Shown here one piece after another: positions 28,842 to 37,811 of a stretch of DNA of 37,931 nt. The DNA is taken from the IMG/VR virus record IMGVR_UViG_3300045988_115844. The stretch is one strand, 5' to 3'. Each line of letters begins with the position of its first letter. Position 1 is the stretch's first letter. The position numbers and the translations under genes were made by a program. Under the pieces are notes generated by a model. It ran no database searches. It saw only the letters and a program-made list of their open reading frames with translations, and was not told the DNA's origin. This DNA is from a virus.

Positions 28842-30200
28842 ATGAAACGATACGGCTATTTGTTCGAGCGCATCTGTTCGCTTGACAATCTGCGTGCCGC
28901 CGCCTGTAATGCGGCACAAGGCAAGCGCCGGCGCGATGAGGTGCAGAAGTTTTTTGCAGACCTTGAAAGCAACCTGCAAGAGATACGCACGGAACTGCTT
29001 TGCCGGACTTACAGGACTTCACCTTATGAAGTCTTTATAAAGTACGAGCCCAAACGGCGCGAGATTTACAAACTGCCTTTTAAGGACAGGGTCGTGCAAT
29101 GGGCCATTATGTTAGTCCTTGAGCCGATATGGACACCGCAGTTTACGGCAGACACGCATGCCTGTATAAAGGGGCGCGGCATTCATTCCCTGCTTAAACA
29201 GCTGCGTAACGACTTGGCGGAAGACCCTGAGGGGACACGATACTGCTTCAAGCTGGACGTGCGCAAGTTTTACCCGAGCATAGACCATGACATCCTTAAA
29301 ATGGTCATACGCCGTAAAATCAAAGACCCTGCGGTTCTTCTGTTGCTTGATGGCATCATAGACAGTGCCCCGGGCGTTCCAATCGGCAACTACATTTCCC
29401 AATACTTCGCCAATCTTTATTTGTCAGAACTTGACCACCGCATCAAAGAGGTGGCCGGGGTGCGTTATTATTACCGCTATGCTGACGATATTGTGGTGCT
29501 GGCAGGAGACAAGGCGACTTTGCACGGTGTCCGCGTGTTCATAAACGACTACCTGAACACCGAGCGCAATTTGTCTATGAAAAGCAATTATCAGATTTTT
29601 CCGGTGGAAAGCCGGGGAATTGATTTTGTGGGCTATGTTACCTACCACACCCACAGCCTTGCACGCAAGCGCAACAAACAAGGACTGTGCAGGGAGGTGG
29701 CGAAGTTGAGAAAAAAGGGAGTCCCCGAACCTGATATCATGTTGCGGACAGCTTCACGCGTCGGCTTCATGGTGCATTGTAACAGCAAACATCTATTAAA
29801 AATTCTTGGTATGAAAAAATTCAGTGAACTTGTGCCGGCAAAGACCGGCAACCTGACAGGTACGAAGTACCACATCGATGCAATCCTGAACCGTGAAATC
29901 CACCTTACAGGTTACACGGTCGCACCGTCAAAGCACAATGCGGAACCTTGCCTCACACTCCAATACGAGATTGAGGAGCCGCTAATGGAAGTAATGGCAG
30001 ACGGAACGAGCCGCCACGTAATCGACGACCAGGGCAACCAGGTCAAAGGCTGGGTGCAGCATATAACCTTCACGGGCAGTCAGGCGCTAATACGTCAGTT
30101 GGACGGTGTGGAGATAACGGAACCGCTCAGGGCTAAAATAATAAAACAACCAATCGAACGGAATCGGTGCTTTTATAAAATCGTCGATCCGGACGATTAA
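28842..30200 (+). CDS. DGR-type reverse transcriptase with a ~120-aa C-terminal extension
   Basis: KLDVRKFYPSIDH, PIGNYISQYFANLYL (the DGR-specific SQ motif), YADD at 29478-29489, and IDFVGY. Confidence 0.85.
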   Translation: MKRYGYLFERICSLDNLRAAACNAAQGKRRRDEVQKFFADLESNLQEIRTELLCRTYRTSPYEVFIKYEPKRREIYKLPFKDRVVQWAIMLVLEPIWTPQFTADTHACIKGRGIHSLLKQLRNDLAEDPEGTRYCFKLDVRKFYPSIDHDILKMVIRRKIKDPAVLLLLDGIIDSAPGVPIGNYISQYFANLYLSELDHRIKEVAGVRYYYRYADDIVVLAGDKATLHGVRVFINDYLNTERNLSMKSNYQIFPVESRGIDFVGYVTYHTHSLARKRNKQGLCREVAKLRKKGVPEPDIMLRTASRVGFMVHCNSKHLLKILGMKKFSELVPAKTGNLTGTKYHIDAILNREIHLTGYTVAPSKHNAEPCLTLQYEIEEPLMEVMADGTSRHVIDDQGNQVKGWVQHITFTGSQALIRQLDGVEITEPLRAKIIKQPIERNRCFYKIVDPDD

Positions 30201-30215
30201 AAAAGCAAATAAACA

Positions 30216-30587
30216 ATGAACACAGCGACCTACACAGAAAGAAAAAAGTTTGTAAAGTATGATGAAAACCACGTGCTGCTTTATCTGAACGAGCAGCCGG
30301 GTGAAGTTACCGACCAGGAGACCGGCAAAAGTGTGCCGGGGTTCTCTTACACTGGCGACCAGCCGGACGGTGGCACATTGATTGAGGCGACCGGCGTAAC
30401 TGATGAGAACCGACGCGACAAGTTTGTAGCTGGGCTTATAGGCTTCCACTACGACATTGACGCGCAGATCGCCACACTTGCCAACGGTGCAGACACACCA
30501 GAACACGCTGCGGAACTGGCGCAGTTCTCTGCCTTGCGTGCGCAGTGTAAGGACGAAGTGGACGAACTTCTGGCACGAACCCTCTAA
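30216..30587 (+). CDS. Hypothetical acidic protein
   Basis: 123-aa ORF directly after the RT. Confidence 0.5.
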   Translation: MNTATYTERKKFVKYDENHVLLYLNEQPGEVTDQETGKSVPGFSYTGDQPDGGTLIEATGVTDENRRDKFVAGLIGFHYDIDAQIATLANGADTPEHAAELAQFSALRAQCKDEVDELLARTL

Positions 30588-33753: not shown

Positions 33754-34578
33754 ATGAGCAGGATTTATAAAAGTGCGCCGCTTCCTTTTATGGGGCAAAA
33801 GCGGTATTTCGTCCGGGCGTTTTCAGAAACGCTTGGAGCGGTGGAGGGAAAGATTGACACGGTGGTCGATTTGTTCGGTGGCAGCGGTCTGCTGAGCCAT
33901 ACAGCCAAAAAGGTGTTGCCAGGTTGCCGGGTCGTTTATAACGACTATGACGGTTACTCGCAGCGTCTCGCACATGTCGAGCAGACGAATGAAATTTTAA
34001 TGCTGATTAAAGAGCGGTTAAAAGGCGTTCAACCGAATGCCAGGTTAAGCGACAGCCAGCGTGCCGATGTGCTGGCCATTGTTGAAAAATATGAAGCCGC
34101 CGGCTACGTGGACGTAATGACAATAGGTCGCTCGGTGCTGTTCAGCGGCAAATGGGTCAAGACCCTGGACGAACTGCGCAAACACACGATGTACAACCGT
34201 GTGAAGCCTGGCGGTTATGACTGTTCCGGTTATCTTGACGGTCTGGAAGTGGTCAGAATGGATTACAGGGAACTGTTTGCCAAGCATAAGGACAACAGCC
34301 GTGCGCTGTTCGTGCTGGATCCGCCATATCTTACTACCGAGGTCGGCCAATATGAGAACTACTGGAGGCTCACCGATTATTTGGACGTGTTGAAGCTTAC
34401 AAAGGGTACGAAATATGTTTATTTCACCTCTGACAAGTCCCAGATAACGGAACTGTGCAACTGGCTGGTCTGCGAGTTCGGCGAAGCTGCGCCACTTTAT
34501 GGGGCAAATAAGCAGGTGCGGACCAATACCCTTAACTACCAGGCGAAATTTAATGATATGATGATAACAAAACTCTAA
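33754..34578 (+). CDS. N6-adenine DNA methyltransferase (Dam/D12 class)
   Basis: PFMGQKRYF, DLFGGSG (motif I) and LDPPY (motif IV). Confidence 0.8.
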   Translation: MSRIYKSAPLPFMGQKRYFVRAFSETLGAVEGKIDTVVDLFGGSGLLSHTAKKVLPGCRVVYNDYDGYSQRLAHVEQTNEILMLIKERLKGVQPNARLSDSQRADVLAIVEKYEAAGYVDVMTIGRSVLFSGKWVKTLDELRKHTMYNRVKPGGYDCSGYLDGLEVVRMDYRELFAKHKDNSRALFVLDPPYLTTEVGQYENYWRLTDYLDVLKLTKGTKYVYFTSDKSQITELCNWLVCEFGEAAPLYGANKQVRTNTLNYQAKFNDMMITKL

Positions 34579-34727: not shown

Positions 34728-34757
34728 CAAAGGTACAAATAAACTGCTGAATGACAA
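34728..34757 (-). promoter_or_regulatory. Bacteroides-type promoter on the - strand
   Basis: The reverse complement reads TTG-N19-TAccTTTGCAAC, with the same 13-mer core as at 33694-33706. Confidence 0.4.
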
Positions 34758-34993
34758 TATATGAGGTCTTGAAATTTATCGGCGAGCCATTGGAAAGGCT
34801 TACAGATGCAGGAATAAAAACAGGTGATTACAAGTATATTGCACTTTATGAGGATTACAGGAAAGCCCTAAAAACAGGCGAAAAGGTAGGTTATATCGTG
34901 GCGGTTCTTGCGGAGCGTTACGGAGTGAGCGAGCGAACTGTTTACGATGTTGTAAAGCGGTTCGGCAAGGACTGCAAATCCTTTTCAGTGTGA
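34751..34993 (+). CDS. Mor/C-family-like small HTH transcription activator (tentative)
   Basis: The C-terminal LAERYGVSERTVYDVVKRF resembles the Mor/C HTH. Confidence 0.4.
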   Translation: MTIYEVLKFIGEPLERLTDAGIKTGDYKYIALYEDYRKALKTGEKVGYIVAVLAERYGVSERTVYDVVKRFGKDCKSFSV

Positions 34994-35006: not shown

Positions 35007-35038
35007 TTTGCGAGAGGCTCATAAACGGCCTAATTTTG
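35007..35038 (+). promoter_or_regulatory. Consensus Bacteroides promoter for the ThyA-like gene
   Basis: TTTG (35007-35010), N20, then TAatTTTG (35031-35038). The ATG lies 9 nt downstream. Confidence 0.55.
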
Positions 35039-35047
35039 CGCCTACGA

Positions 35048-35689
35048 ATGGAAAACAAGTATTACCACATCTTAGACAAGATATTGCGCTGTGGAAAGAA
35101 ACAGAGCAATAAAAAGGGCGACATTATTTACCTGCTTAATGAGCAGCTCTGTTTGTCGCCTTCTGACCTCTTGAACATCTTTGAGGGTCATAACATAGCA
35201 CGCAAGAAGTTGCGCAGTGAATTGAGCCTGTTTATGCAGGGAGAAAGAGACCTGAGCAAGTACAGAGAAGCCGGGATAAATTGGTGGGATTATTGCGGGC
35301 AAATTCTCATTAACAGTTATCCGACTTACTTTGAGAAGTTGCCGGCTTTAATCGCCCAAATCAACAGGGAGAAGCGCAACAGCAAAAATTATGTGCTGTT
35401 CTTGGGTTCGACAGGTGCTGAAACCAATCAAGCACCTTGTTTAAGCCTTATTCAGTTCCAGATTGAAGACGGTGAATTGGTTTTGTCAGCCTACCAAAGA
35501 AGCAGCGATGCAAACTTAGGTTTGCCTGCTGACATTTACCATTTGTATTTGATAACACGACAAATTGAACTGCCTTTGAAGTCAATAACGCTGAACCTTG
35601 GGAATGTTCACATCTACGCAAACAACGCAGACAAGACGCGCGAACTTCTGGCAGGAAATGAAGTGGTAAAGTTTGAATTGAACGTGTAA
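35048..35689 (+). CDS. Thymidylate synthase superfamily enzyme, predicted cytosine-specific (dCMP methylase/hydroxymethylase-like)
   Basis: APCLSLIQFQIEDGELVLSAYQRSSDANLGLPADIY aligns to ThyA PCH..QF..DGKLS..YQRS.D..LGLPFNI. Catalytic Cys at 35438-35440. Asp at 35531-35533 sits where ThyA has Asn177. Confidence 0.65.
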   Translation: MENKYYHILDKILRCGKKQSNKKGDIIYLLNEQLCLSPSDLLNIFEGHNIARKKLRSELSLFMQGERDLSKYREAGINWWDYCGQILINSYPTYFEKLPALIAQINREKRNSKNYVLFLGSTGAETNQAPCLSLIQFQIEDGELVLSAYQRSSDANLGLPADIYHLYLITRQIELPLKSITLNLGNVHIYANNADKTRELLAGNEVVKFELNV

Positions 35690-35711: not shown

Positions 35712-35762
35712 CAACGCTGATTAAAGACCTGAAAAAAGTGGCTTTTAATCAGCGTTTATTTT
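35712..35762 (+). terminator. Intrinsic terminator
   Basis: 13-bp stem AACGCTGATTAAA/TTTAATCAGCGTT followed by TATTTTAT. Confidence 0.7.
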
Positions 35763-35775
35763 ATGTTCAGTTTTC

Positions 35776-35850: not shown

Positions 35851-35902
35851 GTTTTGCTCGTTTCGTTTTCAGATTTTGCACATTTCGTTTTTGCGATTAT
35901 AG
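35851..35902. repeat. Putative right terminal transposase-binding region
   Basis: TTTCGTTTT at 35861 and 35883. TTTTGC at 35852, 35874 and 35889. Ends at the inferred junction. Confidence 0.4.
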
Positions 35903-36157
35903 TTGTTGACCGTCGACAACAAAATAAGTATCTACATTTTTCGGATGACTTACCACTGCAATGGGCTGAAGACAATAGTACGGTTCACGGCCTTCATTAT
36001 TACGGTTTTTTTTTGACTTCATAGATTTTACAAAATCCAGCAGATCATCGAGAAGTTCCTCTATCTGACGTGATTCCCAACGATATCCACGTTGATACGG
36101 CGGTATAATGAAATGCATTTTTAGCAATTCATGAAACGGTTTTGGTACAAGAGACAT
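35903..36157 (-). pseudogene. DUF262 (GmrSD/ParB-like N-terminal domain) gene truncated after DGQQ by the phage insertion
   Basis: IIPPYQRGYRWESRQIEELLDDL...VVDGQQ, then L-stop read from the phage end. Full-length family members are several hundred aa. Confidence 0.6.
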
Positions 36158-36212: not shown

Positions 36213-37487
36213 TTAAGACTTAGGATTATATAATCCTATTTGTCGTTCAAAAATTGTATAGAACACATTTTGTTCAGTTTTTATTATCCCTAATCGGTTT
36301 GACAATGACTGCCAATACTTAACTGTATTCAGTACTTCACTAATGATTTGCCGAGCAATATGCTTCTGTAACATATATTCCTCACAAGAATTCAGCAATT
36401 CATTCAAATCCGATTTATTGGTATAGCTGTTAATTAACAGACTCTGATACTCATTTAGCGTTGGATTAATATCGTAAGCCGGAGCCAAAGTCCATCCCTT
36501 AGCTGTCAGAAGGAAACCGTGATTACGGAAATGGTCATCCGTATTACCAATGCAAATATTGAATGCAACTCTGCGATACAGTTCTTGCAGATTATCCTCT
36601 ACGTTAGTACAATTCTGAAGTATGAAATCGACAATATCCAGATAGCCATGGCCGGTATTAGCATTGTCACCATCATTCAAGCCCAATAGAGTCATGGCTG
36701 AAGCAAAATGTATGCGCTTACCGTCTTCCCTTCTATCAAATCGTCGGGAAAGCAAAGTATGGTATTTGTCGCTAGTAGAGATTACTTTTGTTTCTGCAGC
36801 ATTGACACCAGCCTTCTTTGCCAACAGATGTGAGAAATGTTCCCAAAGTCCAACATCATAATCATCTTTGCGGGATGGAAGCTTTGCTATATGCAGGATC
36901 TTGTTCTCATCAATTACGCTTGCCTTTGGACGCGCTCCGCCAAGGGATGAACCAGGTTGGACCAGTTGAGCAATCCAGCGCATTTCAGGCAACCTGTTCT
37001 CATCTTCACTTTTCTCTATTTCGGAACTAGCTGCAATCAACTCACGAATATCTGTCAGTGGTGGTATGCGCAGGATTTCGCTTGCATTGATATAATCTCC
37101 ATTTATAGACTCCTTGAATCGAAAAGCCCCCATGCGAGAAAAGTCCTCAATCCCGATAAGATAGTCGAATGAAGAAAGCCGACGCATTGGACGATTCTCT
37201 TCCTTTGCTAGAATCTGCTCCCGACGATTTATCAATGTACGTCCCCACCTGTCTGGAAGGGCATCAGAAAAACATCCGAAAATATCCTTGCCGGGAGCCG
37301 TGTATTGCTGACCAGGATAGTTGTTCAAGTCATCACTAAGAAACAGACCTCCATAGTCCTTGAGCCATTCATCATTATAGCAAAATCCATAGCTGTCAGA
37401 GCCACGAAGGGATTCGTAATTCAGCTCACCAATTAGCCTTGGTCCTTTCAGCCAATCAAAATCAGCAAATACATAGAGTTTTTTCAT
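36213..37487 (-). CDS. hipA: HipA-family Ser/Thr kinase toxin
   Basis: SSLGGARPKASV and NTDDHFRNHGFLL motifs. 424 aa. Confidence 0.85.
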   Translation of the reverse strand: MKKLYVFADFDWLKGPRLIGELNYESLRGSDSYGFCYNDEWLKDYGGLFLSDDLNNYPGQQYTAPGKDIFGCFSDALPDRWGRTLINRREQILAKEENRPMRRLSSFDYLIGIEDFSRMGAFRFKESINGDYINASEILRIPPLTDIRELIAASSEIEKSEDENRLPEMRWIAQLVQPGSSLGGARPKASVIDENKILHIAKLPSRKDDYDVGLWEHFSHLLAKKAGVNAAETKVISTSDKYHTLLSRRFDRREDGKRIHFASAMTLLGLNDGDNANTGHGYLDIVDFILQNCTNVEDNLQELYRRVAFNICIGNTDDHFRNHGFLLTAKGWTLAPAYDINPTLNEYQSLLINSYTNKSDLNELLNSCEEYMLQKHIARQIISEVLNTVKYWQSLSNRLGIIKTEQNVFYTIFERQIGLYNPKS

Positions 37488-37490
37488 ACC

Positions 37491-37811
37491 TTATTCTTTT
37501 TTGGATGCCCTTTCCCGCTGTTTAAGACTTAAATCCTGTAATGCTTTTCCCATTGCATCTTCTTTTGCAAGCAGAAGAATATCATCATCTAGTTGAAGCG
37601 CATAAAGCACCCTGAGATAAATACCTATTGCCACTGTCGGTACACCTTTCTCTATACGTGAAACCGTAAGAGGTGAACAGGTGGCACGTTCGGCGACTTG
37701 GGCAATGCTGAGATTTCTGCGTAATCTGGCCAGCCTAATCTGTTCTCCTACTATCTGCATCTTCTGCTCCAGCTTTCTTGGCAACTTGGTACCTATCGTA
37801 CTTTTCGTCAT
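37491..37811 (-). CDS. hipB: XRE-family HTH antitoxin (HipB-like)
   Basis: RLRRNLSIAQVAERATCSPLTVSRIEKG. Lies 3 nt upstream of hipA. Confidence 0.8.
   Translation of the reverse strand: MTKSTIGTKLPRKLEQKMQIVGEQIRLARLRRNLSIAQVAERATCSPLTVSRIEKGVPTVAIGIYLRVLYALQLDDDILLLAKEDAMGKALQDLSLKQRERASKKE

Follow-up and report, generated by a model that had tools for sequence, protein, structure and literature searches.

We describe here ThyL, a thymidylate synthase-like protein of 213 aa encoded on the plus strand (35048..35689 including the stop codon, ATG start) of the IMG/VR virus record IMGVR_UViG_3300045988_115844, a stretch of 37,931 nucleotides that is referred to below as the window. The window is a Mu-like transposable prophage of gut Bacteroidales with a transposase (PHROG 310) and a MuB-like ATPase, and is distantly related to the Bacteroides Hankyphage p00/jmh43. 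ThyL belongs to the ThyA superfamily, and its active-site residues read as those of a folate-dependent enzyme acting on a cytosine deoxyribonucleotide. The favoured reading, to which we give about an even chance, is that of a folate-dependent C5 one-carbon transferase specific for deoxycytidylate (dCMP), with a hydroxymethyl product likelier than a methyl product. The gene of the Hankyphage group that is annotated as "thymidylate synthase" probably modifies dCMP and does not make thymidylate. The protein deserves attention as the best conserved one across Hankyphage-related Bacteroidales prophages, which is transcribed and is annotated everywhere as a plain thymidylate synthase (TS).

Fold and active site of ThyL

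Residues 4-203 of ThyL matched the Pfam family Thymidylat_synt (PF00303) with an E-value of 1.3e-19 and 70.8 bits (cut-off 24.3), and the match in the PHROG database was PHROG 160, thymidylate synthase. A structural model was predicted with AlphaFold2 from an alignment of 23 sequences and had a mean predicted local distance difference test score (pLDDT) of 94.7 and a predicted template modelling score (pTM) of 0.92. Its best Foldseek matches in the Protein Data Bank (PDB) were bacterial TS (query-normalised template modelling score 0.84-0.87, 20-23% identity); a fold search of BFVD yielded no close viral model, with identities of at most 22%. With a profile score above the curated cut-off and a TS fold, ThyL is a ThyA-superfamily member. 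An earlier note on this DNA, made from the sequence alone, had described a protein of this superfamily much shorter than ThyA, and the length of 213 aa and the PF00303 match bear this out. ThyL lacks a stretch of about 14 residues that follows Tyr94 in ThyA, and it stops ~45 residues short of the ThyA C-terminus, so that the C-terminal tail is missing too.

Within the superfamily, ThyL stands apart from the described TS groups. All NCBIfam ThyA equivalogs score it far below their cut-offs (19-57 bits, against 108-576); the best of them reached 56.6 bits (cut-offs 325-327), TIGR03284 reached 53 (cut-off 108), and TIGR03283 reached 34 (cut-off 175), a score on which an identity as archaeal short TS was rejected. 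Profile alignment with hhalign gave 99.3% over 202 columns for E. coli ThyA and 89.6% over only 82 columns, in the C-terminal part, for the dCMP hydroxymethylase (dCH) of phage T4. When 1.84 billion representatives were scanned exhaustively with HMMER, only 851 proteins were returned at an E-value of 1e-3, so that ordinary TS must be regarded as distant from ThyL. The full-length relatives with less than 55% identity form a short clade of 201-266 aa, which is marked by Lys-Gly at the Arg21 loop and by the motifs N-[ST]-Y-P, S-[KR]-N, Gln-x-x-Cys, Q-R-S-x-D, G-x-x-x-D and H-I-Y. A contrast group (P0227, P0241, P0263 and P0264; 251-269 aa) also has Asp at the position of ThyA residue 177, and all its members keep Leu143 and a longer C-terminal extension, while most retain an aromatic residue at position 176 and the Arg-Arg pair; the short clade lacks these four features together.

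Residues were mapped to E. coli ThyA (numbers in brackets) by phmmer against PDB sequences, MAFFT and hhalign, which gave consistent results around the conserved motifs; the T4 gp42 sequence used in the alignment was checked to be identical to PDB 1B49. Conservation was determined in 108 distinct full-length ThyL relatives from the fetched loci. ThyL keeps Glu58 (Glu58), Trp80 (Trp80), the catalytic Cys131 (Cys146) of the APC motif (35438..35440, plus strand; 108/108 relatives), Gln150-Arg151-Ser152 (Gln165-Arg166-Ser167) of the YQRSSD motif, Asp154 (Asp169), Gly158 (Gly173), and His188 and Tyr190 (His207 and Tyr209) of the H-I-Y motif. The retention of the cysteine, the YQRS-D segment and the H-x-Y motif, as given in the earlier note, was recovered by all alignment methods, and the coordinates are correct. 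The probable counterpart of the catalytic Tyr94 is Tyr91, an invariant residue in the N-[ST]-Y-P motif; Ser90 and Tyr91 are adjacent in ThyL, and the three alignment methods differ in their placement of Tyr94.

Several positions are changed. The pyrimidine-specificity position (Asn177) is occupied by Asp162 of the LGLPAD motif (35531..35533, plus strand; 108/108). The alignments agree on this aspartate, which had been read in the same way before, and also place it opposite Asp179 of T4 dCH. Leu132 stands for His147, and this non-His residue is likewise fixed in all 108 relatives. Gln128 (35429..35431, plus strand), three residues before the catalytic cysteine, takes the place of Leu143 in ThyA and of Asp145 in T4 dCH and is a signature of the clade (108/108). 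Further changes are Asn127 (Ala142), Cys83 (Trp83) and Ala161 (Phe176). In the Arg21 region, the DRTG box reads NKKG (NKKGD versus DRTGT) with an invariant Lys23, and the phosphate-clamp pair Arg126'-Arg127' reads Lys113-Asn114 (NSKN versus DSRR; 35384..35389, plus strand). Lys113 is present in 106 and Asn114 in 107 of the 108 relatives, and position 126 is Lys or Arg. Invariant throughout the set are Lys23, Glu58, Tyr91, Ser112, Gln128, Cys131, Arg151, Ser152, Asp154, Gly158, Asp162, His188 and Tyr190. The kept residues Glu58, Cys131, Arg151, Ser152, Asp154, His188 and Tyr190, together with Asp162 and Leu132, are also invariant in the wider short clade. The earlier claim that the phosphate-clamp arginines are replaced holds for Arg127, which is lost to Asn across the family (107/108). 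It does not extend to the whole clamp, since Arg166 and Ser167 are invariant and the Lys at the position of Arg21 also occurs in T4 dCH (Lys28; PMC6400193).

These data bear directly on the annotation. The Hankyphage-type gene is labelled thymidylate synthase by GenBank and JGI, the Pfam, PHROG and structure searches all match TS first, and lone TS genes are common in phages, all of which would fit a compact thymidylate synthase that boosts the supply of thymidylate (dTMP) during phage replication. Such an enzyme is nevertheless very improbable in view of the change of Asn177 to Asp and of His147 to Leu in every one of the 108 sequences, the absence of Leu143, Trp83, Phe176, Arg127 and the whole C-terminal tail, the low NCBIfam equivalog scores and the small number of proteins recovered in the HMMER scan. 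A canonical TS was rejected on Asn177/His147, the contacts of TS to O4/N3 of uracil, on Leu143, Trp83, Phe176 and the tail, and on the NCBIfam cut-offs.

Predicted substrate, product and fate of the product

The specificity of ThyA homologs has been related to a small set of positions, although this residue code derives from a handful of characterised enzymes. At position 177, Asn denotes deoxyuridylate (dUMP) and Asp denotes dCMP as substrate (PMC8670742, PMC13326640), and in the MetaGPA study positions 177 and 147 best separated the cytosine-modified from the unmodified phage contigs (PMC8670742). At position 169, Asp stands for folate-dependent one-carbon chemistry and Asn for flavin-dependent 5-hydroxylation (PMC13326640); at position 167, Ser stands for deoxyribose and Ala, together with Lys126', for ribose (PMC5175136). 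At position 143, Leu is associated with a methyl product and Asp or Glu with a hydroxymethyl product (PMC6400193, PMC13326640). By this code, the residues of ThyL read as cytosine, folate-dependent and deoxyribose. The switch from uracil to cytosine C5 that the earlier note had predicted withstood every sequence and structure test run, with Asp177 and a non-His residue at position 147 in 108/108 relatives and strong purifying selection on the gene. Its alternative of DNA, RNA or a non-phosphorylated base as substrate is disfavoured by the invariance of Arg166, Ser167 and His207/Tyr209; because the 3'-OH ligands His207 and Tyr209 are intact, a free mononucleotide appears more plausible than DNA, RNA or a bare base.

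Another cytosine compound might also be considered, such as CMP, as for MilA and BcmA, or a cyclic or esterified cytidylate, with a role, for example, as an antimetabolite, in interference with nucleotide signals or in a function of the lysogen. The Lys at Arg126' is common to the ribonucleotide-preferring MilA and BcmA (PMC5175136), the Asn at Arg127' is essentially invariant, partner enzymes for conversion to deoxynucleoside triphosphates (dNTPs) were not found among the scanned genes of the window or in the Hankyphage annotation, and the ortholog is transcribed in uninduced cultures. Against this stand the invariant Ser167, which is the main bar to ribonucleotides, Arg166 and His207/Tyr209 (PMC5175136), and the lack of glycosidase, kinase or pathway genes adjoining ThyL; moreover, the uninduced expression tracks that of early phage genes and may therefore be just spontaneous induction. 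We consider an activity on such a compound quite improbable.

In the favoured reading, ThyL would be an active, probably dimeric enzyme of the TS fold in which dCMP replaces dUMP as substrate. Cys131 would attack C6 of the base, Asp162 would read and protonate N3 of the cytosine, and methylene-tetrahydrofolate would be activated by Glu58 and Asp154. The 5'-phosphate would be held by Arg151, Ser152, Lys23 and Lys113', and the 3'-OH by His188 and Tyr190. The exocyclic methylene intermediate would most likely be captured by water to give 5-hydroxymethyl-dCMP (5hm-dCMP), with 5-methyl-dCMP as the second choice. Capture by water is suggested by the loss of the elements that seal the active site of TS and orient the pterin (Trp83, Leu143, Phe176 and the C-terminal tail). 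Hydroxymethylation would be favoured over methylation because T4 dCH is without the same elements, whereas the longer Asp177 relatives keep Leu143, a longer extension and a mostly aromatic position 176. The invariant Gln in the place of the expected carboxylate makes hydroxymethyl a tentative choice of product, though still the favoured one.

A dCMP methyltransferase, which would use the reductive chemistry of TS to form 5-methyl-dCMP and thereby introduce sequence-independent 5-methylcytosine (5mC) into new DNA, as in phage Xp12, or whose product would be deaminated to dTMP by the host, is in our view unlikely. It would agree with a profile far closer to bacterial TS than to T4 dCH in hhalign, with which the PDB profile search concurs, and with the presence of Gln128 where a hydroxymethylase requires a carboxylate (PMC6400193). 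Hydride transfer, however, depends on Leu143, Trp83, Phe176 and a C-terminal tail closing the active site, all of which are absent (PMC6400193), and it is the longer Asp177 relatives, with Leu143, a longer C-terminal extension and mostly an aromatic residue 176 and the Arg pair, that look like real candidates for such an activity. A tblastn search with one of these Leu143/Asp177 relatives for a natural dCMP methylase to compare gave only ordinary phage TS.

If dCMP is hydroxymethylated by ThyL, host kinases would carry the modified nucleotide into the dNTP pool, as no phage deoxynucleoside monophosphate (dNMP) kinase or dCTPase was found. Mu-type replication relies on the host replisome and on the host dNTP pool. 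The outcome would be a partial, sequence-independent modification of cytosine in all DNA made during transposition-replication. Together with the adenine methylation expected from the neighbouring Dam-like methyltransferase, this could serve as a broad anti-restriction measure, which would fit a wide host range.

Searches for partner enzymes gave the following results. The annotation of the complete Hankyphage genome lists neither a dNMP kinase nor a dCTPase, deaminase or glycosyltransferase, and none of these was detected among the 11 open reading frames (ORFs) of the window that were scanned against PHROGs. Kinase, dCTPase and glycosyltransferase partners were also not found beside the wider-clade members of ThyL on longer contigs. 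These neighbourhoods came from a second profile search, the contigs with distant relatives obtained earlier being only 1.4-2.9 kb long.

Several points weigh against dCMP hydroxymethylation by ThyL. Every characterised hydroxymethylase has Asp or Glu at the position of Gln128, and the D145N variant of T4 dCH makes no 5hm-dCMP (PMC6400193), so that the activation of water may work differently in ThyL. The Ser-x-Tyr signature of dCH reads Ser-Tyr, and the equivalent of Tyr94 is not fixed by the alignment. The sugar-phosphate end of the site is less certain than the base end, because Arg127' is replaced by Asn and Arg126' by Lys, as in the CMP-preferring MilA (PMC5175136). Neither a phage dNMP kinase nor a dCTPase was seen in the scanned ORFs of the window or in the Hankyphage annotation, and ThyA homologs expressed in E. 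coli without their kinase led to only trace amounts of the modified base in DNA (PMC13326640). Lastly, no anomaly of virion DNA in sequencing or restriction is reported in the papers on Hankyphage. Those consulted do not discuss the function of the gene beyond its label, and no paper on the clade was found.

A wider proposal, which we put forward with low confidence, is that a whole, highly prevalent lineage of temperate transposable gut phages, including Hankyvirus, makes a modified deoxycytidylate before replication, that the Gln may go with either a different activation of water or a product that is neither hydroxymethyl nor methyl, and that the modified base might be built into the chromosome of the host in addition to phage DNA. 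The last point is suggested by transcription of the ThyL gene in uninduced lysogen cultures. Should the base enter the DNA of lysogens, these would come into conflict with modification-dependent (type IV) restriction. If dCMP is indeed modified, the ThyA product code would gain a new active-site solution (Gln143, Asn127'), and the broad host range would have an added partial explanation beyond diversity-generating retroelements (DGRs) and methyltransferases. Modified cytosine might then occur in the DNA of gut phages, and possibly of lysogens, that sequencing studies have treated as canonical; among gut samples taken in industrialised settings, 64% are reported to contain Hankyvirus (bioRxiv 10.64898/2026.05.08.723808). 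With B. thetaiotaomicron jmh43 and its induction by dCas9, a Hankyphage system is available in which the question is directly testable.

Conservation, transcription and genomic context

The pairwise ratio of nonsynonymous to synonymous substitution rates (dN/dS) of ThyL against its relatives was 0.03-0.09, and synonymous sites were saturated in the comparison with Hankyphage. The gene is under strong purifying selection, and its high protein identity reflects long-term constraint rather than recent transfer, as the low dN/dS and the saturated synonymous sites indicate. ThyL is 81% identical between the window phage and Hankyphage jmh43 (L085), which makes it the best conserved of the shared proteins. 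The others range from 24 to 63% (endolysin 63%, helix-turn-helix (HTH) protein 56%, methyltransferase 44%, transposase 24%), and for most structural proteins no match could be detected.

At least 584 IMG/VR stretches, and likewise 397 species-representative genomes across the Bacteroidales, encode relatives of 78-99% identity. The best 80 genome loci include Bacteroides, Phocaeicola, Parabacteroides, Prevotella/Segatella, Alistipes, Muribaculaceae, Paraprevotella, Barnesiella and others. Several contigs with ThyL (L089, L091, L102, L120, L134 and L135) belong to metagenome-assembled genomes labelled Oscillospiraceae, Staphylococcus, Clostridium, Faecalibacterium or Oscillibacter, and are probably mis-binned Bacteroidales prophage contigs. 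Another database artefact is the 342-aa protein P0001, an assembly in which the ThyL sequence is duplicated internally. Members of the wider clade occur on a 42.8-kb marine siphovirus-like contig, in an early or recombination region, on a lambdoid-type contig directly after NinG, and on AT-rich contigs, on one of which ThyL adjoins a PolA-like exonuclease gene. Three distant relatives, P0144 (L004, 827-1477), P0143 (L086, 249-941) and P0172 (L088, 1219-1887), lie on contigs with a G + C content of ~30%. These contigs read TGA as Trp (code-4-like), as shown by TGA at conserved Trp positions, including WW in the active-site loop.

The ortholog in Hankyphage is transcribed and induced. In the published RNA-seq data for jmh43, normalised reads of the ThyL ortholog at 6 h rose from 152-204 in uninduced cultures to 1111-2672 after repressor knock-down (S6 Data, PMC12135933), with log2 fold changes of 1.5-4.4 over the time course (PMC12135933). 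The uninduced controls at 6 h had 111-124 reads for the repressor, 75-118 for MuA and 2-4 for TerL (PMC12135933). The basal signal of the ortholog may represent true lysogenic expression or spontaneously induced cells.

In the window, the ThyL gene is preceded by a Bacteroides-type promoter-like motif, TTTG-N20-TAATTTTG (35007..35038, plus strand), which ends 9 nt 5' of the ATG. An in-frame TTG at 35036 sits within the -7 box of this motif, and the ATG at 35048 is backed as the start by the N-termini of the homologs, which read MxNKYY.... If the promoter motif is functional, the mRNA would be nearly leaderless. The statistics behind the motif are weak: the loose pattern matches 4 times in the window where 0.88 matches are expected, and 4 were also reached in 3 of 100 shuffles. 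The promoter of its own that had been proposed for the gene is thus present as a motif in the window but is not conserved across the family. Only 4 of 84 related loci retain the exact match, for which reason we do not treat the motif as a family feature, and in the Hankyphage group the upstream region differs and contains an AGGAGG-like sequence. Downstream of ThyL, a terminator-like hairpin (35713-35756) with a U-rich tail (35713..35766, plus strand; RNA fold -20.5 kcal/mol, z -2.9) has inverted-repeat matches in related loci.

The upstream partner of ThyL is a gene for an 80-aa HTH protein (34751..34993, plus strand), which matches Pfam HTH_23 (1.2e-5) and, below the cut-off, Mor (5e-4; weakly Mor/C-like). 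It lies directly 5' of ThyL in nearly all of 80 IMG/VR loci and near ThyL in 69 of 80 genome loci. A Dam-like N6-adenine DNA methyltransferase of the D12 class (33754..34578, plus strand; Pfam MethyltransfD12, FGGSG...DPPY) is the third partner. In most of the 160 loci, such a gene lies next to the HTH-ThyL pair, before or after it, at the right end of the prophage; in some loci, stop and start codons overlap within this module of HTH, ThyL and methyltransferase genes.

Farther upstream, a 452-aa ORF (28842-30200, plus strand) is 36% identical to the reverse transcriptase (RT) of the Hankyphage DGR and is followed by an Avd-sized ORF of 123 aa (30216-30587), so that the region 28842-30587 is probably a DGR. 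Neither a repeat search nor permissive blastn turned up a template/variable repeat pair around the RT homolog. An RT gene is located a few kb 5' of ThyL in many loci. In one Bacteroidales prophage (L171, 8562-10606), ThyL directly follows a DGR-type RT gene without an HTH or methyltransferase gene, and host genes (ribosomal protein L21 and seryl-tRNA synthetase) begin ~1.4 kb beyond the end of ThyL. A functional link between ThyL and the RT was rejected, as the marine and lambdoid clade members are without an RT.

The right end of the prophage was located at 35897..35906 by blastn against independent related prophages (L005-L017), with which homology stops at 35901-35906. Positions 1-49 of the window represent the Illumina TruSeq universal adapter (CGACCACCGAGATCTACACTCTTTCCCTACACGACGCTCTTCCGATCT) and are 97-100% identical to adapter remnants in unrelated phage records. 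The contig begins inside the phage, after this adapter, and the left end is therefore missing; a search for the left end and a target-site duplication gave no inverted terminal match. The right end adjoins an 85-aa ORF on the minus strand (35897-36157), which represents a type IV restriction protein of the GmrSD/DUF262 kind (Pfam GmrSD_N, 1.2e-14) cut down to its N-terminal third. The frame of this ORF ends with ...VVDGQQL*, which indicates that the prophage insertion (junction ~35901/35902) cuts the GmrSD gene inside the conserved DGQQR motif. A phage with a predicted cytosine-modifying enzyme has thus disrupted a gene for a modification-dependent nuclease, but in this one case only: the other fetched loci had no GmrSD fragment at the prophage end, the match in L110 being ~4.5 kb away. 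The host flank also encodes (36213-37811, minus strand) a HipA-like kinase toxin (424 aa; HipA_C, 1.3e-48) and an upstream HTH_31/HTH_3 (HipB-like) gene, and has a G + C content of 38-41%, compared with ~52% for the phage.

Comparison with known systems

ThyL is closest to bacterial ThyA by profile and structure, and has the same catalytic core. It differs from it in being ~50 residues shorter and in lacking the tail, the 14-residue segment after Tyr94, Trp83, Leu143, His147, Phe176 and Arg127. With the engineered ThyA N177D and L. casei N229D, mutants that methylate dCMP, it shares Asp177 (PMC8670742).

With T4 gp42 dCH (PDB 1B49, 1B5E and 6A9A), ThyL has in common the ThyA fold, the Cys nucleophile, the acid of the Glu58 type, the Arg-Ser phosphate pair and the residue of the Asp169 type, and also Asp at the specificity position (Asp179), Lys for Arg21 and the absence of Trp83 and of a C-terminal tail (PMC6400193). 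An I-N-S motif just ahead of the region of the catalytic Tyr is likewise shared. Unlike T4 dCH, ThyL has Lys-Asn for Arg123'-Arg124', apparently Ser-Tyr instead of the Ser/Thr-x-Tyr motif, and Gln three residues before the cysteine. The phages that carry it are temperate, Mu-like or lambdoid in type, and no dCTPase, dNMP kinase or glucosyltransferases were found with it. The likeness to T4-type dCMP hydroxymethylases drawn in the earlier note therefore does not extend to an identity with them: the residue three before the cysteine is Gln and not Asp or Glu, the hhalign match is far shorter than that to E. coli ThyA, and both the Arg-Arg pair and the companion enzymes are missing.

RB69 gp48 and DLP3 gp80 are also phage ThyA homologs with Asp177 and act on dCMP. 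They have D169N and Glu143, bind flavin and occur together with a dNMP kinase and arabinosyltransferases (PMC13326640), whereas ThyL has Asp169 and Gln143. A 5-hydroxy-dCMP synthase of the RB69 gp48 type was rejected for ThyL because Asp154 is invariant where Asn is diagnostic (PMC13326640). The CMP hydroxymethylases MilA and BcmA share with ThyL the Asp at the base-specificity position and the Lys at Arg126' (PMC5175136). Ala176 of MilA, the main determinant of ribose preference, has its counterpart in the retained Ser167 of ThyL, which also has Gln instead of Asp before the cysteine; an identity as a MilA/BcmA-type enzyme was rejected because Ser152 is invariant where Ala is needed, although Lys113 is present (PMC5175136). 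Unlike these enzymes, ThyL is found in a phage context, with no genes of a nucleoside-antibiotic pathway.

In function and position only, the mom gene of phage Mu offers an analogy, as an accessory DNA-modification gene at the right end that is tied to adenine methylation and lies beside a small regulatory gene. Mom itself is unrelated to ThyL and modifies adenine in DNA after replication, whereas ThyL would be a pyrimidine enzyme acting at the nucleotide level. To our knowledge, the modification of pyrimidines before replication, to 5-hydroxymethylcytosine, 5mC, 5-hydroxymethyluracil or 5-hydroxycytosine, has been demonstrated only in virulent phages that possess the kinases and pool-clearing enzymes needed for replacement; ThyL, by contrast, is a ThyA homolog of the cytosine type that stands by itself in its temperate phages, which are Mu-like and lambdoid-type.

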